Origin: a virus
Lineage: Duplodnaviria; Heunggongvirae; Uroviricota; Caudoviricetes
Reading direction: 5' to 3' (one strand)
IMG/VR virus record: IMGVR_UViG_3300035156_000038
Span: 21,726-85,725 of that record
Length of the DNA: 64,000 nucleotides
The position numbers and the translations under genes are program-made. A model generated the notes under the pieces. That model was not told where the DNA came from. It saw only the letters and a list, made by a program, of their open reading frames with translations, and searched no databases. Positions 19,218 through 27,398 of the stretch are shown one piece after another (position 1 is the first letter of the stretch; the number at the start of each line of letters is the position of its first letter).

Positions 19218-19649
19218 TTAATTATTAACCAACACCATAAACTTCTCACGATCAGCGACCAGTTGGAGTTGCCGTTGACGTTCTTCTTCAGCTTCTACTC
19301 GCTCTTTGTACTTCAAGTAGCAGCTAACCATGTAAGACTTCTCATCTGGTGTCATCCAGCCTGCTTGACAGGTGTAGACGGTTTCAAAGTCCCAGCCAGT
19401 GTAGACGGTGAAGACCACTTGCAAAGCCTTAGCTTTGTGTGTGAAGACTTCAATACCCACGTGGCTACGCGGTCTACTGCGATCTTCCAAGACCCATTCA
19501 CCAGTCTCCAAGATGGATTTAGCAAGGCTGATAACAGGTTCACCGACTACGGGGTTCTTTGCTTGAAGGCTTTCGGCAACCATATCCGAAATACTTTCCG
19601 TAGGCTTCTTATCTTCACCGAAGAAGTTCTTCAGCCATTTAAGTATCAT
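19218..19649 (-). CDS. hypothetical protein
   Basis: 143 aa; overlaps the upstream macro gene start (coupled). Confidence 0.45.
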   Translation of the reverse strand: MILKWLKNFFGEDKKPTESISDMVAESLQAKNPVVGEPVISLAKSILETGEWVLEDRSRPRSHVGIEVFTHKAKALQVVFTVYTGWDFETVYTCQAGWMTPDEKSYMVSCYLKYKERVEAEEERQRQLQLVADREKFMVLVNN

Positions 19650-20122
19650 TGTTCATCCTCTTTGATCCACAGGGTAGCGTTGTGAGCATGGAAGACAGCT
19701 TCGAAGATAGCGATAAGACGCTTCCTGTCACCGTTTGCCAGCCCACCGCCAATCAGCGGAAGGTGGATCGGGATTGCTGGCATGTATTGATCTACATACT
19801 TCAGCACGTTTTGCAGGCCACAGATAACCGCATCGTAGTCCACGTACACCTTGTAGGGATTACGTCCGTACTCTGCTTGGGTAATCACGTTAGCAATGCA
19901 GCGATCAGCGTAGGGGTTTTCCCAGATGATAGCTTGGCCCAGCTTCAGACCGTAGCGACGTTCAGCCTGCTTGTACACAAGGTACGCTTCCGGGTGAAGG
20001 TCTTTGATGATCTTCGCCACGCCACTACCCATCACGCCCTTGGCGTTACAGCCGTGGAGAACCAACGTACGCTTACCAGCCGTGGCGTTGAACAGGTCGC
20101 CAATTTGAATGTCAAGTGCCAT
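19646..20122 (-). CDS. macrodomain protein (ADP-ribose binding/processing)
   Basis: 158 aa; LVLHGCNAKGVMGSGVAKII… matches the macro-domain Gly-rich ADP-ribose-binding loop (NAAN…GGGV). Confidence 0.7.
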   Translation of the reverse strand: MALDIQIGDLFNATAGKRTLVLHGCNAKGVMGSGVAKIIKDLHPEAYLVYKQAERRYGLKLGQAIIWENPYADRCIANVITQAEYGRNPYKVYVDYDAVICGLQNVLKYVDQYMPAIPIHLPLIGGGLANGDRKRLIAIFEAVFHAHNATLWIKEDEQ

Positions 20123-20204: not shown

Positions 20205-20468
20205 TTAGTTTACAATTGAATCCTTGTAGCATTCTGCCATATCGAAAAGCGCCCGTTCGCGTCCAATCACGGCCATACGCTTAACGGGGCTGGTAAGGTA
20301 GAACGAATTACCAGCATACTTTCCGTTAAGTTGAACAGCAGTGATTACGTCCGGTTCTTCCAATTCAAGAATCTTAAATAGTGCTAGCTCCGGGCCTTCA
20401 TCGCCTGTGTCAGAGTATAACACAAACTGCCCAGTAGCTAGCGGAATGCCGAACATATCCACTAGCAT
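20205..20468 (-). CDS. hypothetical protein
   Basis: 87 aa. Confidence 0.4.
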   Translation of the reverse strand: MLVDMFGIPLATGQFVLYSDTGDEGPELALFKILELEEPDVITAVQLNGKYAGNSFYLTSPVKRMAVIGRERALFDMAECYKDSIVN

Positions 20469-20484
20469 ACTACACTCCTAGCTA

Positions 20485-21870
20485 TTACACAATGTAGAAA
20501 CGCTTGCCGTATGCAGCGGTAGGGCCTGCATCGTACTGCTTCTTACCTTGCACGGTAGCTTGTGCACGGGCCATATCGCGGGTGTCGTAGAACGCAGCAT
20601 TCAGGGGTGCAACGTGGTAGCGAACACGGCCACCATCGGTAGGCAGGATCGGGCGTGGTGCACCGAAGAAGCCAGCAGGAGCAGCAGTTTTAGCAATCAC
20701 TTGCGCTTGGGTCGGGACAGCTTTCTTAGCAACCTTTTGTGGGTGCGGGGTAGGCTTGTTCGACACAGGCACGGCAGGCAGTTCGATTTCAGCAGGCTTC
20801 TTCGGTTGCAGGTACGCCAGATCAGCTTCGGTAAATGGCACGCCGATAGCTTCCCAGTAAACCACACCAGTGTCGCCCACCAGATGACGATTCACCGACG
20901 ACGACTGGATAAAGATGTCGAAGTTGCCGTGGTCGCCCGGATGCAGACGAACGTTGCTATCGGTAGGCAGGCCCAGCATTTGACGCGGGATGTCCTTACC
21001 TTGCTTGTCCTTACCGCCGTAAATCTTCTTGGTAGTACGGTCACGAACCAGAATCATCTTCGAAGGCTGCACACGTGCTTCCGTCTTGGTAAGCTGGTAG
21101 AAAGCAGCGCCCTTCAGGTATTGCATACGCTTAGTCAGGATGAAGTCACGGATTTCCAGCTTTTCACCAACAGCCAACGAAGGCACAACGTACAGCGAAA
21201 CGTCTTTGGTAACGTCAACCAGCGACGAAGTATCCACTGCACCAGCTTGAGCGTAGAACACGGTAGACGACTTCTGACCAGTTGCACGGGCAGCGTAGAA
21301 GTTGTTGAACGCCGCTTCGGTAGCCTGAGTCGAGTTAGCGAAGCCTGCTGCGGTTTGATCCCATGCTTGGATGTTACCCCGTGGGATGCCGATGCCAGCC
21401 AGCGTATCAACTTCGTTAGCAGGAACGCGGAACACGAAAGTCCAACGACCGTCACGCTGCGTCAGTTCGCGGATAGCTGCTGCTACGTCCGCACCACCGC
21501 CCTGAGTGTCACCGCCGTCAGTGGTCATCAGTACGACGAACGACACGTTAGGATCGGCGTAGTCAGGCATCGACTTAGCGAGCTTGATGATTTCCAGCAC
21601 GGTACGGAACAGCGGAGTGCCGCCCTGTGCAGGCCAGTTAGCCATAGGTTGCAGAACGTGCGGGTTCGAATTCACGATTTGACGGGTGATGCCACCGGGG
21701 CCGATACCGAAGCCGAACACCGAAACGATGGTGTCTTGCATTTGCTTGGTAGAAGCTTCCTTGACTGCCTTGATGTTTGCATTGAAGTCACGCTTCGCTG
21801 CGCTGGTCAGGCCGTGCATCGAACCCGAGTGATCGTTACCGAAAAAGATGTAATTCTTGATATGCGACAT
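20485..21870 (-). CDS. von Willebrand factor A (vWA) domain protein
   Basis: N-terminal IFFGNDHSGSM…T…TDGGD resembles a MIDAS motif (DxSxS…T…D); 461 aa; RBS AAAGGAGAAATACAATATG. Confidence 0.6.
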   Translation of the reverse strand: MSHIKNYIFFGNDHSGSMHGLTSAAKRDFNANIKAVKEASTKQMQDTIVSVFGFGIGPGGITRQIVNSNPHVLQPMANWPAQGGTPLFRTVLEIIKLAKSMPDYADPNVSFVVLMTTDGGDTQGGGADVAAAIRELTQRDGRWTFVFRVPANEVDTLAGIGIPRGNIQAWDQTAAGFANSTQATEAAFNNFYAARATGQKSSTVFYAQAGAVDTSSLVDVTKDVSLYVVPSLAVGEKLEIRDFILTKRMQYLKGAAFYQLTKTEARVQPSKMILVRDRTTKKIYGGKDKQGKDIPRQMLGLPTDSNVRLHPGDHGNFDIFIQSSSVNRHLVGDTGVVYWEAIGVPFTEADLAYLQPKKPAEIELPAVPVSNKPTPHPQKVAKKAVPTQAQVIAKTAAPAGFFGAPRPILPTDGGRVRYHVAPLNAAFYDTRDMARAQATVQGKKQYDAGPTAAYGKRFYIV

Positions 21871-21970: not shown

Positions 21971-23602
21971 TTATCCGTGAAGACGTTGCTTGATTTCTGC
22001 GAAGGTTTGGAAGTTAACAACCTTACCATCACGGAACACTTCTTTAAGCTGACCGCTTTCTTCTTGGAACGGACGCTGGCAATCGTACAGCACGAAGTTG
22101 TCACCTTCCTTTTCCACACGCAGCAGGCCCTTAGCGGACTTCTTCGAACCCGAGTCGGTAGCCGGGTCTTTCTGGATGTCGCGTTCTTCGCCGTTGACGA
22201 TGCCCCACGTAGCCTTGACGGCCATGCCGAACGTGTCACGGGTGATGTACTGGTAGGTGTAGCTACCAATGCCGAACACTACGTTGCCAGCCGAGAAGCC
22301 TTTATCCATCAAGCGTTGCAGGATGGTTTCACAGCGTTCCAGCGTAATGCTATCGCCGTAGATCAGGCCCACGTGACGGTCGATGGTCTTGAAACCCTTG
22401 TCGGTCACAGTGCCGCCGAACTCATCCCAGAGGCATTCGACAGCGCCCTTGACTACGTGTTCTGGAATCTCTTTGCCTAGACGCAGCGTATCGCTAGAGC
22501 TAGCATCGAATTCGTAGAACTTACCTTCGTACTTAACTGCATCGTAGTCATCTTCGAATTCCCATGCAACACACTCGCCCACGTGCAGGTCAGTGATTTC
22601 TTTGACCTTCAGACCAGTAAGAATCTTGACAGGATCGCCCGAGTCAGGACGGAACACAACCTTGGCGTTACCAAACGCGTCTTCCTTACGGGCCAGAATT
22701 TCGGCCTTAAGCAGCTTGGTAAAGCGGGTGATGACAGCCCAGAAGTCCCACGTATCCGACACGATGGACACGATACCCGATGGGTAGGTTTCGGTAATCA
22801 GACGGCGGAAAGTACCCACTTCGTCTTCCTTACCACCCATGCACATTACTGAGTGTTCTGTTGCCGGGACGCTACCAGCTACAAGTTCCTTCGTAACGTC
22901 AGCACCGTAGTAGTCTTCCAGATAGTCGATTGCCAACAGGGCATCGGTTCCCGAACCAGCGCACATCAGGTGGGCTGCACCGCACTTAGCGGAGTCAGCA
23001 CGCCCCGACATACCACGCATCGAGAAGTCATGCGCTTGCCAGTTGACGAACATTGGGTCGCTACCAGTCAGCGTAGCATACTTGTTAATCAGGCGGCGGT
23101 ATTCGAACGCGATGGTGCCAACGGTGATCGGCTTCCACAGTTCGCACGAAAGAACCGTTTCCAGATAGTTAGTAAGCCAGAAGAAGGCCGGGTGCGTGTT
23201 ACGGATCGTCAGGAACGGAACCTTGATGTCCACACGCGAACCTTCATCCAGAGCCTTGATGACGATAGGCAGGTAGCCAAGATCGTGCAGGGCTGCGATG
23301 TGGTCAACTCGTACCGAGTCTGGGCCAAGGAAGGCGTCACAACGGCGCTTGTATTCTGCCACTACTTCAGCTTTAGGACGCTGGAAGAAGCCTTCGTTCC
23401 ATTCTTCGATCAGGAATTCCATCGTGAAGCCTTGCAGGCCAGTGAACACGACTTTACCATCAAAGGTAGAAGGCATACGGGCGTGGGTCAGGCTACGAGC
23501 CGTGAAGTTCGAATAGACGTACTCCGTACCTTTCGGGTATTGGTCGATGTGGCCGAGCTTGTAGCTATCGAGGGCCAGATGTGGGCGACGTTTCATTATC
23601 AC
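21971..23602 (-). CDS. nicotinamide phosphoribosyltransferase-family protein (NadV/Namat-like)
   Basis: 543 aa; N-terminal 'LDSYKLGH…YPKGTEYVYSNFTAR' is the NAMPT signature (DSYK); length fits. Confidence 0.8.
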   Translation of the reverse strand: MIMKRRPHLALDSYKLGHIDQYPKGTEYVYSNFTARSLTHARMPSTFDGKVVFTGLQGFTMEFLIEEWNEGFFQRPKAEVVAEYKRRCDAFLGPDSVRVDHIAALHDLGYLPIVIKALDEGSRVDIKVPFLTIRNTHPAFFWLTNYLETVLSCELWKPITVGTIAFEYRRLINKYATLTGSDPMFVNWQAHDFSMRGMSGRADSAKCGAAHLMCAGSGTDALLAIDYLEDYYGADVTKELVAGSVPATEHSVMCMGGKEDEVGTFRRLITETYPSGIVSIVSDTWDFWAVITRFTKLLKAEILARKEDAFGNAKVVFRPDSGDPVKILTGLKVKEITDLHVGECVAWEFEDDYDAVKYEGKFYEFDASSSDTLRLGKEIPEHVVKGAVECLWDEFGGTVTDKGFKTIDRHVGLIYGDSITLERCETILQRLMDKGFSAGNVVFGIGSYTYQYITRDTFGMAVKATWGIVNGEERDIQKDPATDSGSKKSAKGLLRVEKEGDNFVLYDCQRPFQEESGQLKEVFRDGKVVNFQTFAEIKQRLHG

Positions 23603-24015
23603 TCTCCTTGTTCAACTGCTGCGATTTGTGCTTGGATACGGGCGATAGCTAACGCCTTATCCGTCATGGCGCGGCCACTTCCGTAGGAGCCTGAACCGAG
23701 ACTTTCATCGCGGCGACCGTCTGCGTAGGTTGCAAAGAGGCTGTACCACGCGTCAGGCCCGAACATTTTATCGGTGTCGGCTTCACGTACGTCAATGTCC
23801 AGACCGTTTATTTCAACCATGAAGGTATTTGTGCTCCACGGAATCAGCGCCATACCTTGTGATTGGAAGTGTGGCAAGGAAGCGGCAAGGCCAGCCGTGC
23901 AGAACAACGTGCCGCACGGTTCCTTCCGGGCATACGAAGACAGGTCAAAGTTCGCTTCCGGCTGGGCTTGCACAGCGCCCAGCAGGGTAAACAGATTTTT
24001 CAAAACTTGGTTCAT
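23599..24015 (-). CDS. small protein, paralog A (PCGTLFCxAGLAA motif), coupled to the NAMPT-like gene
   Basis: 138 aa; RBS AAGGAGAAGAAAATG; stop overlaps the Namat start; paralog of 25299..25694. Confidence 0.55.
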   Translation of the reverse strand: MNQVLKNLFTLLGAVQAQPEANFDLSSYARKEPCGTLFCTAGLAASLPHFQSQGMALIPWSTNTFMVEINGLDIDVREADTDKMFGPDAWYSLFATYADGRRDESLGSGSYGSGRAMTDKALAIARIQAQIAAVEQGE

Positions 24016-24041
24016 TTTCTTCTCCTTATATGTGTCGTTAA

Positions 24042-24437
24042 TTAACGGCGGCGCTTCGACAGGCTCACGCGGCTGCTGGATTTGCTGCTGCTAGCGAAGC
24101 GGCTGGTGAAGGTTGCTGGACGGCTACGGTTGATAACCGTCTTCTGAACCACCGTCTTGTTGATGATGGTTTGACGCACTGGTGCACGGCCATAGCCACG
24201 GTCGTAGTCGGAACCACGCGAGCCACCACCGCTAAGTGCCATGCCAGCCATAGCGCCCAGAGCCATGCTACCCGCGTCGATGCCGCCGCTTTCTTGCTGG
24301 ACAACGACAGGCTGTGCCGGGGCTTGTTGAGCCGGGGCGGCGATAACTTGTGGCTGTTGGATTGGTTGGGGTGCAGGGCCGCAAGCCGACAGGGCAGCAG
24401 CGAACAGGGTAGCGATAGCGATTTTCGATTTGAACAT
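24042..24437 (-). CDS. lipoprotein (Gly/Ala/Pro-rich, basic C-terminus)
   Basis: Signal peptide plus lipobox LSAC; 131 aa; RBS AAGGAGAATCAAAATG. Confidence 0.55.
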   Translation of the reverse strand: MFKSKIAIATLFAAALSACGPAPQPIQQPQVIAAPAQQAPAQPVVVQQESGGIDAGSMALGAMAGMALSGGGSRGSDYDRGYGRAPVRQTIINKTVVQKTVINRSRPATFTSRFASSSKSSSRVSLSKRRR

Positions 24438-24465
24438 TTTGATTCTCCTTGGTTAAGTTGGTTGG

Positions 24466-25293
24466 TTAAACTACTACTACTTTGCCGCTTGCTACGGCTG
24501 CTTTGCCAGTAGCGCCGACAGGATTAGAAGTATATAAGCTATCTACCAATCCGTCAAACACTTTTTCACCAGCCGAGAAGATGCCGTGGGTTACATACAA
24601 CATAACTTTGCCAGTGGTCAGCTTGCGTAGCTCCTTAGCTAACTCCGTGAAGGTACGGCCACCGTCGCAGATGTCGTCCACGATCAGGAAGTCCTTATCT
24701 CCTACAGGCTCGCTGTACACTACGGTTCCCGTAATCTTACCCGACAGTACATCACGGGTCTTATCTGCACGAACAACGTTAGCATAACCGTACTCTTTGG
24801 CTATTGCAAGCACTTTCTTGTTAGCGCCTGCGTCTGGGCTAACTAGGATAGTTTGCCTGTTAGCGTGGTGGCTCATACCGAGGAAGTCGAACTTCGAATC
24901 CACGTGCATCAGGTTATCCAGTAGTGCAACGCCGACATCCGAGTGGATATTAAAGCACTGAACGGCACTGAACTTAAGGCCGTTGATGAAGTCGCAAGCA
25001 ACCTTCACAGACAGGCTTTCACCACGGGCGCACACACGGTCTTGGCGAGCGTATGGAAGGTACGGCATCTGCAATTCAATCAGGATGTCGTGCCCGAGTT
25101 CCCGGCGTACTGCGTCCACCAGCAGTGCCAGATTAAACAGGTCGTCGTTACCTTCAAATTCCAGCGTGATTTCTGCGAATGACGGCTGGTGTTCCACGGC
25201 TTCGGCGTCGATTTTGATAAACGTTTCCCCGGCAGGGAAGCGGCGAATCACGATAGATACATCCTTGTTGTCTACGGACAGTTGCAGGCTCAT
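24466..25293 (-). CDS. ribose-phosphate pyrophosphokinase-family protein (PRPP synthetase / Adps-like)
   Basis: PYLPYARQDR and LIVDDICDGGRTF are the PRS catalytic-flag and PRPP-binding motifs; 275 aa. Confidence 0.8.
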   Translation of the reverse strand: MSLQLSVDNKDVSIVIRRFPAGETFIKIDAEAVEHQPSFAEITLEFEGNDDLFNLALLVDAVRRELGHDILIELQMPYLPYARQDRVCARGESLSVKVACDFINGLKFSAVQCFNIHSDVGVALLDNLMHVDSKFDFLGMSHHANRQTILVSPDAGANKKVLAIAKEYGYANVVRADKTRDVLSGKITGTVVYSEPVGDKDFLIVDDICDGGRTFTELAKELRKLTTGKVMLYVTHGIFSAGEKVFDGLVDSLYTSNPVGATGKAAVASGKVVVV

Positions 25294-25298
25294 GTTTA

Positions 25299-25694
25299 TT
25301 ACTCCTTGGTTGTTTGTTCATTGGCTTTGTATTCCGCGATACGGTACTTCAGACGGGCGATAGCAAGCTGCTTATGGGTCAGTTTATCCCAGCCCAAATC
25401 TTCATCCAACCCGCCGCCACCCGCGTACTGGAACAGTTCGCTCATGGAGTTGGGGCCGAACAGGGGATCGCCACCACCGTCCCACACGGAAGTGCCGTTA
25501 AGGCTTGGGTCGCCGTCCCAGACCATGCCTAGTGCTTGGAATCGTGGCATGTTAGCAGCCAGCCCCGCTACACAGAATAGTGTACCGCAGGGCCTTTCCA
25601 TACGGAAGTTGTCAAGGTTGAACAGGCGTTCTGGCTGTGCTTCGACAGCAGCTAGCAGGGCTTCCAGATTTTCGATAATTGCTTGGTTACTCAT
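25299..25694 (-). CDS. small protein, paralog B (PCGTLFCxAGLAA motif), coupled to the PRS-like gene
   Basis: Start set at MSNQAI (RBS GAAGGAGAAGAACATG); 131 aa; shares LxAVEAQPE…PCGTLFCxAGLAA…P.FQ..GM with 23599..24015. Confidence 0.55.
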   Translation of the reverse strand: MSNQAIIENLEALLAAVEAQPERLFNLDNFRMERPCGTLFCVAGLAANMPRFQALGMVWDGDPSLNGTSVWDGGGDPLFGPNSMSELFQYAGGGGLDEDLGWDKLTHKQLAIARLKYRIAEYKANEQTTKE

Positions 25695-26027: not shown

Positions 26028-26056
26028 AGTATGCCTGCTTCCTACTTAGCTGTCAA
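26028..26056 (-). promoter_or_regulatory. sigma70-type promoter (leftward)
   Basis: Minus strand: TTGACA - 17 - CATACT. Confidence 0.5.
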
Positions 26057-26524
26057 GCTGTTTGGCAAAATAATTTCAATGCCAAGACGTTCCAGTTTGT
26101 CGTATAGGTCAACGCTAATCTTCCGCACAGGGAACACGATACTGCGCTTGCCGAGGCTTGCCATGTAGGTAGCCATATCCAAGCTACCCGTGCTTACTCC
26201 GTCCCACACAACAAGGGCTGCATCTGCGAAGTCGCCCATATCGTGATTACGTTGGATGCCAGCCATGACGTTGTACTTACCCCGGCTGTTCTTCTTAACA
26301 ACAGCGCCCGGAGCCTTGATGTTGTCCCAGTCAGCCGGGAAGTCGTGAATCTTCAAGCCAGCTTTCTTGGCAATCTCTTCGCCCAGCGTATCTACGCCCT
26401 TGGCCTTGCCGCTGACAACTTCGATAGCCTTGCCGTGTTCGGCCCAGAGGCCCGATTCAATAAGCGCACGCTTAACGGTGTCGTAGCTAGTGATGCTGCG
26501 GCTACCCGCGATGATAAGTTTCAT
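26042..26524 (-). CDS. SLOG-fold protein, DUF2493-like (predicted nucleotide/ligand binding)
   Basis: Start set at MKLIIAGSR (GGAG RBS); MKLIIAGSRS…VVSGKAKGVD…G pattern fits DUF2493/SLOG. Confidence 0.55.
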   Translation of the reverse strand: MKLIIAGSRSITSYDTVKRALIESGLWAEHGKAIEVVSGKAKGVDTLGEEIAKKAGLKIHDFPADWDNIKAPGAVVKKNSRGKYNVMAGIQRNHDMGDFADAALVVWDGVSTGSLDMATYMASLGKRSIVFPVRKISVDLYDKLERLGIEIILPNSLTAK

Positions 26525-26525
26525 G

Positions 26526-26765
26526 TTAGCTCCAAACGAAGTACAGTGCAACGAGTGCCACTACCAGAGTGATAGCACGATGCAGGGTTGATGTTTCTTT
26601 GTCATTGATGGGACAGAACGCGTACAGCATTCCGAAGCTGGTAATAAAGTAGGTAGCTACGATAGCCCCAGCGATTTTGAGTATTGCTTCCATTATTGTT
26701 CCTTTGCCCACTTGATAGCAGCCACAACGACATCGCCGTGGCAAGCCTTCGGATAGCAATAACAC
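26526..26765 (-). CDS. small membrane protein
   Basis: 79 aa, two hydrophobic helices. Confidence 0.4.
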   Translation of the reverse strand: MLLLSEGLPRRCRCGCYQVGKGTIMEAILKIAGAIVATYFITSFGMLYAFCPINDKETSTLHRAITLVVALVALYFVWS

Positions 26766-26986
26766 GCAAGCCGCTTCCCGTCCAGAGAACGTAAGTAGTC
26801 AAGCGTGATCTTGCCACGTTTTATTTCTCGCCATAGATACCTACGGTAGAGTTCGATAGCCACTTGCCGGGTAATCCCCGCCTCTTCGTTGATAGCGTAG
26901 ATATTCCCTAACGGCGATCCCCGGCCTATGTAGACATCATACTCTTGGTAGTGCTTGTTAACTACGGTTGCCACGAAGTTCCTCAC
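26693..26986 (-). CDS. DUF4326-like protein
   Basis: 97 aa; YIGRGS…GN…CYC.P..CHGD pattern as in DUF4326; overlaps neighbours. Confidence 0.45.
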   Translation of the reverse strand: MRNFVATVVNKHYQEYDVYIGRGSPLGNIYAINEEAGITRQVAIELYRRYLWREIKRGKITLDYLRSLDGKRLACYCYPKACHGDVVVAAIKWAKEQ

Positions 26987-27398
26987 GAATCTCCATTAGC
27001 AGCTTACCTAGCCAGTTCTGGCCCTCGCCGTAGCAAACACCCCAGAAGGTATCATACCACGTATTTTCTTCGATTAGCTCACGCTCTCCGGTAGCTAGCA
27101 AAGCAACGCGCAAGTAACCCCAGCTAAACTTCTCGCGTAGCAGGCCCCTCATAACATCCAGCTTGATAGCTTCCCAGTCAGGCCGTAGCGTGATTTGCTT
27201 GCCCATGCGTTTAGCTTGGCCGGGAGTTGTGCACAGCCGAATAGCTTCGCGGAATTCCTTCACCGTTGTTTTGGCAGCTTGGTAGGCATGTTCCACGGTG
27301 GGGTACATCACGCCTTCAAGCTCCACTTCGCAGAGCGTGAAGTTGGATAGCCAGCGGTAGTCACCGTGGAAGCCGCTGATAGGTAGCAGCTTGCTCAT
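26958..27398 (-). CDS. NADAR-domain protein (YbiA-like; ADP-ribose/NAD-related N-glycosidase family)
   Basis: FHGDYRWLSNF…YPTVEHAYQAAK matches the NADAR/DUF1768 core motif (Y..LSNF…EH.YQA.K). Confidence 0.7.
   Translation of the reverse strand: MSKLLPISGFHGDYRWLSNFTLCEVELEGVMYPTVEHAYQAAKTTVKEFREAIRLCTTPGQAKRMGKQITLRPDWEAIKLDVMRGLLREKFSWGYLRVALLATGERELIEENTWYDTFWGVCYGEGQNWLGKLLMEIREELRGNRS

Follow-up and report, generated by a model that had tools for sequence, protein, structure and literature searches.

The window, the whole 64-kb stretch of DNA analysed here, is part of the 91,295-bp contig of an uncultivated siphovirus (about 91 kb) with a lambda-like head, which the isolate phage collection does not contain. 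The minus strand of this window encodes an Adps-like and a Namat-like protein together with their neighbours (Table 1). The Adps-like gene comes first and the Namat-like gene second, with two genes on the same strand between them and intergenic gaps of 2-28 nt. The genes run in the same direction at close spacing and are probably co-transcribed.

Table 1. Genes in and around the Adps-Namat block (positions in the window)
Feature	Coordinates	Strand	Basis
SLOG/YAcAr	26042-26524	-	PF10686
DUF4326	26693-26974	-	PF14216
NADAR	26958-27398	-	PF08719
Small ORF, 131 aa from ATG 25694, paralog of 23599-24015	25299..25694	-	BLAST
Adps-like (ADP-ribose pyrophosphate synthetase; Prs superfamily), 275 aa	24466..25293	-	PF13793, phrog_619, NJ tree
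Lipoprotein-like ORF, 131 aa, between Adps and Namat	24042..24437	-	Signal peptide and LSAC lipobox, strong RBS
Small ORF, 138 aa, paralog of 25299-25694	23599..24015	-	40% identity, E 4e-25 (BLAST)
Namat-like (nicotinamide ADP-ribose transferase; Nampt family), 541/543 aa	21971..23596/23602	-	PF04095, 9W5X/9W5W match
vWA-like protein, 461 aa, MIDAS-like DHSGS motif	20485..21870	-	phrog_26613
Conserved ORF, 87 aa, between the vWA-like and Macro genes	20205..20468	-	Homologues in L010, L012, L027
Macro-domain gene, 158 aa, candidate ADPR-1''-phosphate phosphatase (Adpp-like)	19646..20122	-	phrog_335

Gene neighborhood and its conservation in relatives

All seven related metagenomic loci that were compared keep the Adps-Namat pair. 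In three of them, those of more distant relatives of the window phage, the two genes are adjacent. With two intervening genes, the pair of the window falls within the association rule of Osterman et al., under which a Namat homologue lies at most 10 genes from Adps (bioRxiv 10.1101/2024.02.11.579819). A further family, phrog_12872, looks like a fusion of Adps and Namat. The synteny extends downstream: the vWA-like protein encoded directly after Namat is 57-60% identical to its homologues in loci L010, L012 and L027, and the 87-aa protein that follows is 35-58% identical across the same three loci. The former matches phrog_26613 at 1.2e-69 and is 43% identical to a protein of Caulobacter phage Cr30; for the latter, the family searches run gave no match. 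The locus evolves under purifying selection, with dN/dS of 0.13-0.25 (0.18-0.21 for the Adps-like gene).

The preliminary description of this DNA, made from the sequence by eye, pointed out that the two enzyme genes are separated by a lipoprotein gene and a small paralog gene. Both are present, each behind a strong Shine-Dalgarno sequence, but such a separation is not unusual, and an ORF between the NARP1 genes is also found in Kayvirus, Pakpunavirus and Thalassavirus loci. The lipoprotein-like ORF, recognized from the signal peptide and lipobox in its sequence, matches neither the same-position ORFs of L010 and L012 in BLAST (E<=1e-3) nor anything in L026-L028 in tblastn, and has no family match beyond one marginal PHROG match; it is probably unrelated cargo. 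The other intervening gene belongs to a family of about 545 representative clusters, and its AF2 model (pLDDT 84.7) gave no informative fold match. Its paralog on the other side of Adps, separated from the Adps start by 5 nt, has homologues in L010 and L027, again upstream of Adps. With the pair adjacent in more distant relatives, the two genes between the enzymes represent an insertion specific to this lineage, outside the chemistry of the pair.

Family placement of the two enzymes

The 275-aa protein carries both of the PRPP-synthetase motifs previously ascribed to it (PYLPYARQDRV and FLIVDDICDGGRTF). Of the profile matches proposed as a check in the preliminary description, PF13793 was found in this protein (9.4e-12) and PF04095 in its partner (7.4e-37); PF00156, like PF14572, was weaker and stayed below its cut-off. 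The match to phrog_619 reaches 264 bits, compared with 248 for the Adps of Bacillus phage SPbetaL1 and 193 for Escherichia coli Prs. A neighbor-joining (NJ) tree was built from a small sample of 25 sequences over 271 columns; its 18 Adps-type proteins separate from the 7 cellular-type Prs in 100% of 200 bootstraps. The window protein is on the Adps side, along with SPbetaL1 (biochemically characterized), FADO (genetically validated), a Felixounavirus of the genus of Bas63 and a Thalassavirus of the genus of Gary, so that it groups with Adps and not with housekeeping Prs, as the NARP1 proposal requires.

The sequence features of the protein agree with this placement. Compared with Prs, it lacks the N-terminal helix (~15 aa) and the C-terminal segment (~25 aa), and at the site of the Prs DKRRP loop it has K-T-R-D-V-L-S-G-K-I, where the Adps pattern is K-x-R-D-x-x-S-G-x-I. 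THGIFS and DDICDGGRTF are common to other Adps, the latter being identical in the Bas63-genus phage bumzen, and K178 aligns with the catalytic K162 of SPbetaL1, with the adjoining Arg also conserved. We rejected assignment to housekeeping class I Prs: its scores of 59-100 bits against the equivalog and full-length subfamily models of Prs in NCBIfam fall short of the cut-offs of 296-536, and the DTGGT ribose-5-phosphate loop is absent or altered, as are the terminal segments and the DKRRP loop. In pairwise comparison, identity is 29.5% to SPbetaL1 Adps (82 bits) and 28% to E. coli Prs (75 bits), with closer similarity to Gram-negative phage homologues validated in vivo (122-129 bits). Since the similarity to SPbetaL1 is barely above that to E. 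coli Prs, the assignment is drawn from the position in the tree, the indels and the Gram-negative phage homologues. Judged by these features, the 275-aa ORF is a Prs-superfamily protein of the Adps type.

The partner protein (543 aa when read from GTG 23602) carries LALDSYKLGH, the 'DSYK' N-terminus of NAMPT noticed earlier, and matches PF18127 (4.4e-8) in addition to PF04095. Its true start is likely ATG 23596, yielding 541 aa; this codon is preceded by an AAGGAG ribosome-binding site and was also chosen in the public gene call. In phmmer searches, the protein scores 509 bits (1.8e-151) to 9W5X/9W5W, the structures of SPbetaL1 Namat (PMC12774641), and 197 bits (about 4e-57) to human Nampt; with E-values down to 1e-151, the enzyme matches are far above chance level. 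The tblastn identities are bimodal, at 34-56% for NARP1-type proteins and 26-30% for T4-like NARP2-type proteins. Four NARP2-type Nampt, one of which adjoins an NMNAT-Nudix gene, are split from the window protein in 100% of 200 bootstraps of an NJ tree built from a small sample.

The catalytic residues D12, Y14, F193, R196, D220, R318 and D320 of the window protein correspond to D13, Y15, F189, R192, D215, R306 and D308 of SPbetaL1 Namat. The adenine-clamp helix is also conserved (G446-SYTYQYITRD-456): GSYTYQYITRD agrees with the published selectivity (SCH adenine-clamp) consensus GS-X-phi-X-phi-X-phi-TRD (PMC12774641), with aromatic residues at the F392 and Y396 positions, whereas the corresponding stretch of KVP40-like (NARP2-type) and human Nampt is GGGLLQ. 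The selectivity-clamp loop (SCL), RSLTHARMP, is 3-5 residues longer than that of SPbetaL1, and the residue opposite SPbetaL1 R40 is Arg in the HMMER alignment and Thr in that of MAFFT. The window Namat and those of the Bas63 and Gary genera share an insertion of some 50 aa. By its sequence, the protein groups with Namat and not with Nampt.

Among the known systems nearest to the window pair are the NARP1 systems of SPbetaL1 and Escherichia phage Bas63, which consist of Adps and Namat (Osterman et al., bioRxiv 10.1101/2024.02.11.579819). The window pair agrees with them in both protein families, in its position in the two splits and in gene order, with the catalytic Lys, the Arg and the SCH motif conserved. 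It differs from them in the two extra genes between the enzymes, the longer SCL, and sequence divergence: about 30% (Adps) and 48% (Namat) identity to SPbetaL1, and 36% and 39%, respectively, to bumzen, with which it shares the Namat insertion. The closest Namat relative in annotated collections (55.8%) is the NadV of an Acinetobacter prsA_2-nadV-NMNAT/Nudix cluster that is bacterial and chromosomal (CAKLQF020000015.1, labelled 'Acinetobacter phage MD-2021a'). This NadV clusters with the window clade in every bootstrap replicate and carries the Namat motif GSFTYNYLTRD without the insertion, and the associated PrsA2 is on the Adps side; the next gene, annotated as bifunctional NMNAT/ADPR pyrophosphatase, has no counterpart found in the window. 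Bacterial homologues of NARP1 are known (PMC12774641).

The preliminary description favored NARP1 over NARP2 from the lack of an NMNAT/Nudix (NatV) gene, and this holds for the ORFs scanned in the 64-kb window. PF01467 and PF00293 have no match at E<=0.01 in the 80 ORFs of the non-structural part of the window or in the neighboring genes scanned singly, and BLAST with the Acinetobacter protein annotated NMNAT/ADPR-pyrophosphatase found no match in the window; for the structural ORFs at 1-18.3 kb, coverage consists of the top-25 family list, and the other 27 kb of the contig are outside the window. NARP2, which in Vibrio phage KVP40 comprises Nampt and Nmnat/Nudix, resembles the window locus in the Nampt superfamily and the NAD+ end product. 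It was rejected because the window Namat falls outside the KVP40 clade and no Nmnat gene, with or without Nudix, was found among the ORFs scanned; moreover, identity to NARP2-type Nampt is only 27-30%, and the window Namat has a Prs-like partner.

Macro-domain and other ADP-ribose-processing genes

The preliminary description mentioned neither the Macro-domain gene downstream of the pair nor the NADAR, DUF4326 and SLOG genes upstream. The Macro gene, the third downstream of Namat, is strongly conserved and keeps this position in four of four close relatives. Its product is a member of phrog_335, a family that also includes the Adpp homologue from a phage of the Gary genus (the window protein and its Adpp-type counterparts from Achelous and PaYy-2 all three belong to it); structurally, it matches both DarG and Poa1p. 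In Vibrio phage Gary, the NARP1-AP system is arranged as Adps-Adpp-Namat (bioRxiv 10.64898/2026.01.28.702374). The window locus resembles it in having, beside the pair, a phrog_335 Macro protein of the TARG1/DarG/Poa1p structural class, with ADPR-binding motifs and Gln82 common to the Gary-genus homologue. Unlike in Gary, the Macro gene lies neither between the enzymes nor within the two genes of NARP1 genes by which NARP1-AP is delimited. A NARP1-AP-like extension at this locus is possible, and we tentatively suggest that the Macro protein may act like Adpp, converting ADPR-1''-phosphate to ADPR in a putative phosphatase role. It is only 28% identical (E 2e-4) to the Achelous Adpp homologue.

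A rather unlikely alternative for the Macro gene, leaving the pair unaffected, is a DarG/TARG1-like ADP-ribosyl hydrolase that would reverse the modification of phage DNA by DarT-type toxins, stripping off the ADP-ribose independently of the pair and without feeding NARP1. The sequence of the Macro protein ranks TARG1 and DarG above Poa1p, but the Achelous Adpp homologue, taken as a control, gives the same ranking, which therefore does not discriminate. Opposite the PTKK motif of DarG, which we take to be the site of the catalytic lysine, the HMMER alignment places ITQA of the window protein, and Q82, invariant in 38 Macro homologues, also occurs in the Achelous and PaYy-2 proteins of the Adpp type; both points, along with the shared membership in phrog_335, argue against this alternative.

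Upstream of the pair, the profile matches are 1.1e-9 for SLOG/YAcAr, 4.9e-21 for DUF4326 and 1.2e-26 for NADAR, and L010, L012 and L027 have homologues of these genes on the same, upstream side of Adps. The co-occurrence of these three domains in phages is known (PMC9503650). The window also encodes an RNA ligase and a PHA02142 OB-fold protein.

Probable NAD+ reconstitution and alternative readings

The window very probably encodes the NARP1 NAD+ reconstitution pathway, as the preliminary description proposed: its two enzymes fall on the Adps and Namat sides of their respective splits, the Namat selectivity motif is in place, and the genes lie within the 10-gene distance. All sequence-level hallmarks of NARP1 that could be assessed were found, apart from the SCL stacking residue.

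It is improbable that the same chemistry serves as a metabolic auxiliary function instead of counter-defense, recycling ADPR from routine NAD+-consuming reactions (phage or host ADP-ribosylation, its reversal by the neighboring NADAR/Macro enzymes, or RNA repair). The NADAR, DUF4326, SLOG and Macro genes around the pair and the RNA ligase and OB-fold protein would fit this possibility, as would chromosomal NARP1-like operons outside prophages in bacteria (bioRxiv 10.1101/2024.02.11.579819; PMC12774641). However, in all experimental cases, NARP1 is active only under NAD+-depleting defense, where it restores plating (bioRxiv 10.1101/2024.02.11.579819; PMC12774641), the window ORFs scanned by Pfam contain no ADP-ribosyltransferase or sirtuin domain, and phage Macro, NADAR and SLOG domains have been proposed to counter host ADPr-based immunity (PMC9503650).

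Classical salvage, with PRPP made from ribose-5-phosphate by the PRS-like protein, NMN from PRPP and nicotinamide by the Nampt-like protein, and NAD+ completed through the host NadR, NadD or PncC route, is suggested by the Pfam and NCBIfam names (TIGR01251 'ribose-phosphate diphosphokinase' subfamily, just passed at 116.6 bits against a cut-off of 113; NF006629, passed at 553 bits), by the formation of NMN from PRPP by Namat enzymes in vitro (bioRxiv 10.1101/2024.02.11.579819; PMC12774641) and by the NMNAT/ADPR pyrophosphatase annotation in the Acinetobacter operon, but it is highly improbable given the fully supported Adps placement, the missing Prs-specific segments and DKRRP loop, the shortfall of about 200-450 bits from every Prs equivalog cut-off, the intact adenine clamp, the Adps and Namat signatures of the Acinetobacter pair itself, and the findings that SPbetaL1 Adps makes no PRPP and that Bas63 overcomes SIR2-HerA in a pncC nadR deletion host (bioRxiv 10.1101/2024.02.11.579819).

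For the NARP1 pathway, we infer the substrates, products and anti-defense effect of the pair by homology to SPbetaL1, Bas63 and Gary. A host effector of the SIR2, TIR or SEFIR type would split NAD+ into ADP-ribose and nicotinamide; the Adps-like enzyme (24466-25293) would then pyrophosphorylate the free ribose of ADPR with ATP, yielding ADPR-PP, in which Namat (21971-23596) would replace the pyrophosphate with nicotinamide, forming NAD+ directly, with no need for an NMN adenylyltransferase. An Adpp-like Macro protein might add a step, returning ADPR-1''-phosphate produced by aRES-type defenses to ADPR. NARP1, which rebuilds NAD+ from the fragments left by NAD+-destroying bacterial immune systems, is a common, already described phage pathway, of which the window phage would be one more carrier.

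The predicted Adps–Namat gene block and its source phage

The window is part (64 kb) of a metagenomic contig of 91,295 bp (ENA ERZ27253086 k141_393738). Its genes include a head module of the lambda type (S49 protease, decoration protein D and capsid protein E), an ORF of 2023 aa resembling a tape-measure protein, a DNA polymerase of family A and a ribonucleotide reductase of class II. Megablast returned no DNA-level match to the locus among isolate phages; the protein database contains many relatives, on contigs of about 88-92 kb. Among the ORFs at 42.7-64 kb, Pfam matches to a T7 gp5.9-like RecBCD inhibitor domain (PF25708, 9.6e-10) and to a dATP/dGTP diphosphohydrolase (PF18909), along with ThyX, a 2OG-Fe(II) oxygenase and a PHA02142 OB-fold plus RNA ligase, suggest one more putative anti-defence gene, besides genes for nucleotide metabolism or RNA repair.

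[quoted passage not shown] These motifs are present as described, and the two genes are indeed separated by a lipoprotein gene and a small paralog gene. The domain search that it had proposed was borne out in Pfam for the N-terminal Prs domain PF13793 (9.4e-12) and for the Nampt-family domains PF04095 (7.4e-37) and PF18127 (4.4e-8), but not for PF00156, which, like PF14572, matched the 275-aa ORF only below its cut-off. The mechanical ORF call for Namat starts at GTG 23602; ATG 23596, preceded by AAGGAG at about 8 nt and chosen in the public gene call (541 aa), is probably the true one. Intergenic gaps in the block are 2-28 nt, with a strong ribosome-binding site at each gene, and a promoter/terminator scan found sites no commoner than in shuffled sequence.

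Features of the predicted NARP1 locus and its surroundings (positions within the window)
Feature	Coordinates	Strand	Remarks
Macro-domain protein, 158 aa	19646-20122	minus	downstream of Namat, beyond the 461-aa protein and an 87-aa ORF
vWA-like protein, 461 aa	20485-21870	minus	MIDAS-like DHSGS motif; phrog_26613 (function-unknown family)
Namat-like ORF, 543 aa	21971-23602	minus	LALDSYKLGH; PF04095, PF18127
Small ORF, 138 aa	23599-24015	minus	paralog of 25299-25694
Lipoprotein-like ORF, 131 aa	24042-24437	minus	signal peptide and LSAC lipobox
Adps-like ORF, 275 aa	24466-25293	minus	PYLPYARQDRV and FLIVDDICDGGRTF; PF13793
Small ORF, 131 aa	25299-25694	minus	directly upstream of the Prs-like gene
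SLOG/YAcAr	26042-26524	minus	upstream of the NARP1 genes
DUF4326	26693-26974	minus	upstream of the NARP1 genes
NADAR	26958-27398	minus	upstream of the NARP1 genes

Distinguishing Adps and Namat from Prs and Nampt

Pairwise BLAST was unable to split Adps from Prs, with the window protein showing 29.5% identity to the biochemically characterized Adps of Bacillus phage SPbetaL1 (82 bits) and 28% identity to E. coli Prs (75 bits), and we therefore relied on a tree and an indel comparison. The protein is nearer to homologues from Gram-negative phages, namely, Av-05 (45%), bumzen (36%, 129 bits) and Achelous (35%, 122 bits). Because bumzen shares the genus Felixounavirus with Bas63, and Achelous shares Thalassavirus with Gary, these two serve as proxies for the phages validated in vivo. 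The alignment comprised 25 sequences: 18 of the Adps type (the window protein, 7 metagenomic relatives, Acinetobacter PrsA2, and proteins from 9 annotated phage records, namely, SPbetaL1, FADO, bumzen, Av-05, Achelous, PaYy-2, ICP1, Kayvirus and a mycobacteriophage) and 7 cellular-type Prs (E. coli, Acinetobacter PrsA1, Listeria, Staphylococcus, Microcystis phage MaAM05 and 2 megaphages).

Across this alignment, the window protein and all Adps-type sequences lack the N-terminal helix (~15 aa) and a C-terminal segment (~25 aa) of Prs, carry the loop K-x-R-[DN]-x-x-[TS]-G-x-I where Prs has DKRRP, have H-S-D-V at the position of the Prs QGFF motif, and share T-H-G-I-F-S, which Prs does not. They also have in common a motif in place of DDMIDTGGT of Prs; in the window protein it reads DDICDGGRTF, identical to bumzen. 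In a neighbor-joining tree of 271 columns, with support counted as bipartitions over 200 bootstraps, the 7 cellular-type sequences split from the 18 Adps-type ones in 100% of replicates, so that the placement with characterized Adps anticipated in the preliminary description is upheld; within the Adps side, the window protein falls in a clade of metagenomic relatives with 99.5% support. K178 aligns with K162 of SPbetaL1 Adps, the mutation of which abolishes activity (bioRxiv 10.1101/2024.02.11.579819). Profile scores run the same way: the protein narrowly exceeds the cut-off of the broad NCBIfam subfamily model TIGR01251 (116.6 vs 113 bits) but reaches only 59-100 bits against cut-offs of 296-536 for every Prs equivalog or full-length model, and the phage family phrog_619 gives it 264 bits, ahead of SPbetaL1 Adps (248) and E. 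coli Prs (193). The Prs-like protein is thus a predicted Adps, not a housekeeping Prs.

For Namat, the best matches among all PDB sequences are 9W5X/9W5W (1.8e-151, 509 bits), which represent SPbetaL1 Namat (PMC12774641); human and other Nampt follow at ~4e-57 (197 bits). A tblastn search of phage genomes was bimodal, with 34-56% identity where the phage also has a Prs-like gene and 26-30% identity to KVP40-type, T4-like phages. In a neighbor-joining tree (20 sequences, 477 columns, 200 bootstraps), four Nampt of the NARP2 type, including that of ACP17, which adjoins an NMNAT-Nudix gene, were set apart from the remaining sixteen in 100% of replicates. Residues listed as binding nicotinamide and ribose phosphate in Namat (PMC12774641) are all kept in the window protein, where D12, Y14, F193, R196, D220, R318 and D320 are conserved together with the GD-S motif. 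The selectivity-clamp helix, G446-S-Y-T-Y-Q-Y-I-T-R-D456, fits the published Namat consensus and places aromatics where SPbetaL1 has F392 and Y396; at this site, KVP40-like, K14-2, XacN1, ACP17 and human Nampt have GG[GKA]LLQ. The SCL loop, another clamp element, is 3-5 residues longer than that of SPbetaL1, and two aligners pair different residues with R40. An insertion of ~50 residues after RPDSGDPVKILTG also occurs in the Bas63-genus, Gary-genus, Av-05 and PaYy-2 proteins and is therefore compatible with function.

The 100% split from NARP2-type Nampt and the clamp motif sustain the earlier preference for NARP1 over NARP2, the route that combines Nampt with Nmnat/Nudix. The reported lack of an NMNAT/Nudix gene also held: neither PF01467 nor PF00293 was detected at E<=0.01 in the 80 non-structural ORFs or the individually scanned neighbour genes of the window, with the structural ORFs at 1-18.3 kb covered only through a listing of the top 25 families. 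These searches span the 64-kb window, with the other 27 kb of the contig outside.

Ordinary salvage was raised as a rival reading of the pair by the closest annotated relative of Namat (55.8% identity), encoded in a record labelled ‘Acinetobacter phage MD-2021a’ (CAKLQF020000015.1), where the gene after a prsA_2-nadV operon bears the annotation bifunctional NMNAT/ADPR pyrophosphatase. Despite the label, this record and its companion CAKLQF020000011.1 are bacterial chromosome: the contig encodes ABC transporters together with an alcohol dehydrogenase, and tRNA-Gln, rplY and prsA_1 are found on sister contigs. The Acinetobacter NadV, however, carries the Namat motif GSFTYNYLTRD, and PrsA2 falls among the Adps-type sequences in the tree, whereas housekeeping PrsA1 of the same genome groups with E. 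coli Prs. By these signatures, the operon looks like a chromosomal NARP1-like operon, in agreement with known bacterial NARP1 homologues (PMC12774641; also discussed by Osterman et al.), and is not counted against the NARP1 assignment. The annotated NMNAT/ADPR pyrophosphatase, used as a BLAST query, had no match in the window.

Judged by all sequence criteria tested, the SCL loop excepted, the locus is NARP1. As inferred from SPbetaL1, Bas63 and Gary, Adps would convert ADPR and ATP to ADPR-PP, which Namat would combine with nicotinamide to yield NAD+.

Inserted genes and small paralogs

Genes between the two enzymes are not peculiar to the window. Two related metagenomic loci, L010 (GCA_040384225.1) and L012, also have one or two small genes there, with 61-64% identity to the window in Adps and 69-80% in Namat; only the enzymes are conserved, and the lipoprotein-like ORF is not. 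In three others (L026, L027 and L028; Adps 50-59% identical), the enzyme genes are adjacent. Among known NARP1 loci, the insert is a 131-aa ORF in Kayvirus, a 72-aa ORF in PaYy-2 and the phosphatase Adpp in Achelous. Adps proteins match positions 3-222 and Namat proteins positions 220-535 of the 547 in phrog_12872, an apparent natural fusion, which suggests that fused forms exist. Against two relatives, Adps shows a dN/dS of 0.18-0.21 and Namat one of 0.13-0.25, figures that are approximate because dS is close to saturation.

The two small paralogs bracketing the Adps gene (40% identity, E 4e-25) share an invariant CGTLFC-AGLA motif and belong to a family of ~545 representative clusters, now and then fused behind DUF6197. 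They matched no Pfam, NCBIfam or PHROG family and, by tblastn, nothing in isolate phages; kinship with the neighbouring DUF6197/DUF8296 proteins was rejected by hhalign, and a confident AF2 model yet gave no informative fold match.

Downstream, the order Namat, 461-aa protein, 87-aa ORF and Macro protein is kept in 4/4 close relatives. The vWA-like 461-aa protein, which in L027 is divided over two ORFs and is 43% identical to a protein of Caulobacter phage Cr30, has homologues only in phages with no evident NARP1 link (such as Cr30 and Myrna) and was accordingly left out of the pathway.

The Macro gene and ADP-ribose-processing neighbours

Within the block, the Macro gene is the best conserved (90% and 69% identity, dN/dS 0.04). 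Its product matches the phrog_335 ‘phosphatase’ family (1.3e-31), which also takes in the Achelous protein encoded between Adps and Namat (8.5e-51) and the PaYy-2 Macro protein located after Namat. Adpp of Gary, a phage of the same genus as Achelous, is a proven ADPR-1''-phosphate phosphatase (bioRxiv 10.64898/2026.01.28.702374). The window protein is thus of the right class, within which the Poa1p-like and DarG-like types are not separable. In the HMMER alignment, ITQA stands opposite the DarG motif PTKK, which we take to hold the catalytic lysine, and Gln82 is invariant in 38 homologues and in the two Adpp-type proteins (Achelous and PaYy-2); both features lean toward the Adpp type. NARP1-AP, the combination of NARP1 with Adpp, is operationally defined by a Macro gene within two genes, whereas that of the window lies outside this range. 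A weak Pfam match to KptA_kDCL (6.6e-4) was seen in an ORF between 30.5 and 46.4 kb and is absent from the genes adjoining the NARP1 module; a KptA/Tpt1-like enzyme, if real, would consume NAD+ and make ADPR cyclic phosphate, which bears on the role of the Macro protein.

Four ADP-ribose-processing domains, SLOG/YAcAr, DUF4326, NADAR and Macro, lie within 8 kb, and L010, L012 and L027 likewise have homologues of the first three ahead of Adps, on its upstream side. These three are known to co-occur in phages, with DUF4326 a predicted ribose-phosphate phosphatase (Iyer et al. 2022, PMC9503650). That the Macro protein alone feeds ADPR into NARP1 is conceivable, although we would sooner bet against it. 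Rather unlikely, in our estimate, is a broader ‘funnel’ with the NARP1 pair as its sink, in which NADAR, the rhodanese-phosphatase-like DUF4326, the YpsA-like SLOG, Macro and possibly the two small paralogs would each turn a different host immune product (candidates are cyclic ADPR isomers, ADPR-1''-phosphate, ADPR>P and base-linked ADPR) into ADPR, to be rebuilt into NAD+ by Adps and Namat. If true, the precedents of NARP1-AP and RyDEP would be broadened into an island of several enzymes.

NARP1 is a known and frequent system, counted in 859 phage genomes, or 4.3% of those surveyed (bioRxiv 10.1101/2024.02.11.579819), so the window instance is mainly an annotation correction: the gene with the JGI name ribose-phosphate pyrophosphokinase and its Nampt-family partner are to be read as Adps and Namat. 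With this identity, the lineage of this phage would be expected to withstand NAD+-depleting defences, the range of NARP1 extends to an uncultivated siphovirus family with genomes of roughly 90 kb, and the pair is seen to tolerate inserted genes. What is new here is limited to the Macro gene, displaced yet strongly conserved, and the ADPr-processing genes around it, which may supply the NARP1 pathway with ADPR; this arrangement of Macro with NADAR, DUF4326 and SLOG neighbours offers a natural test of whether more ADPR-processing enzymes do so.
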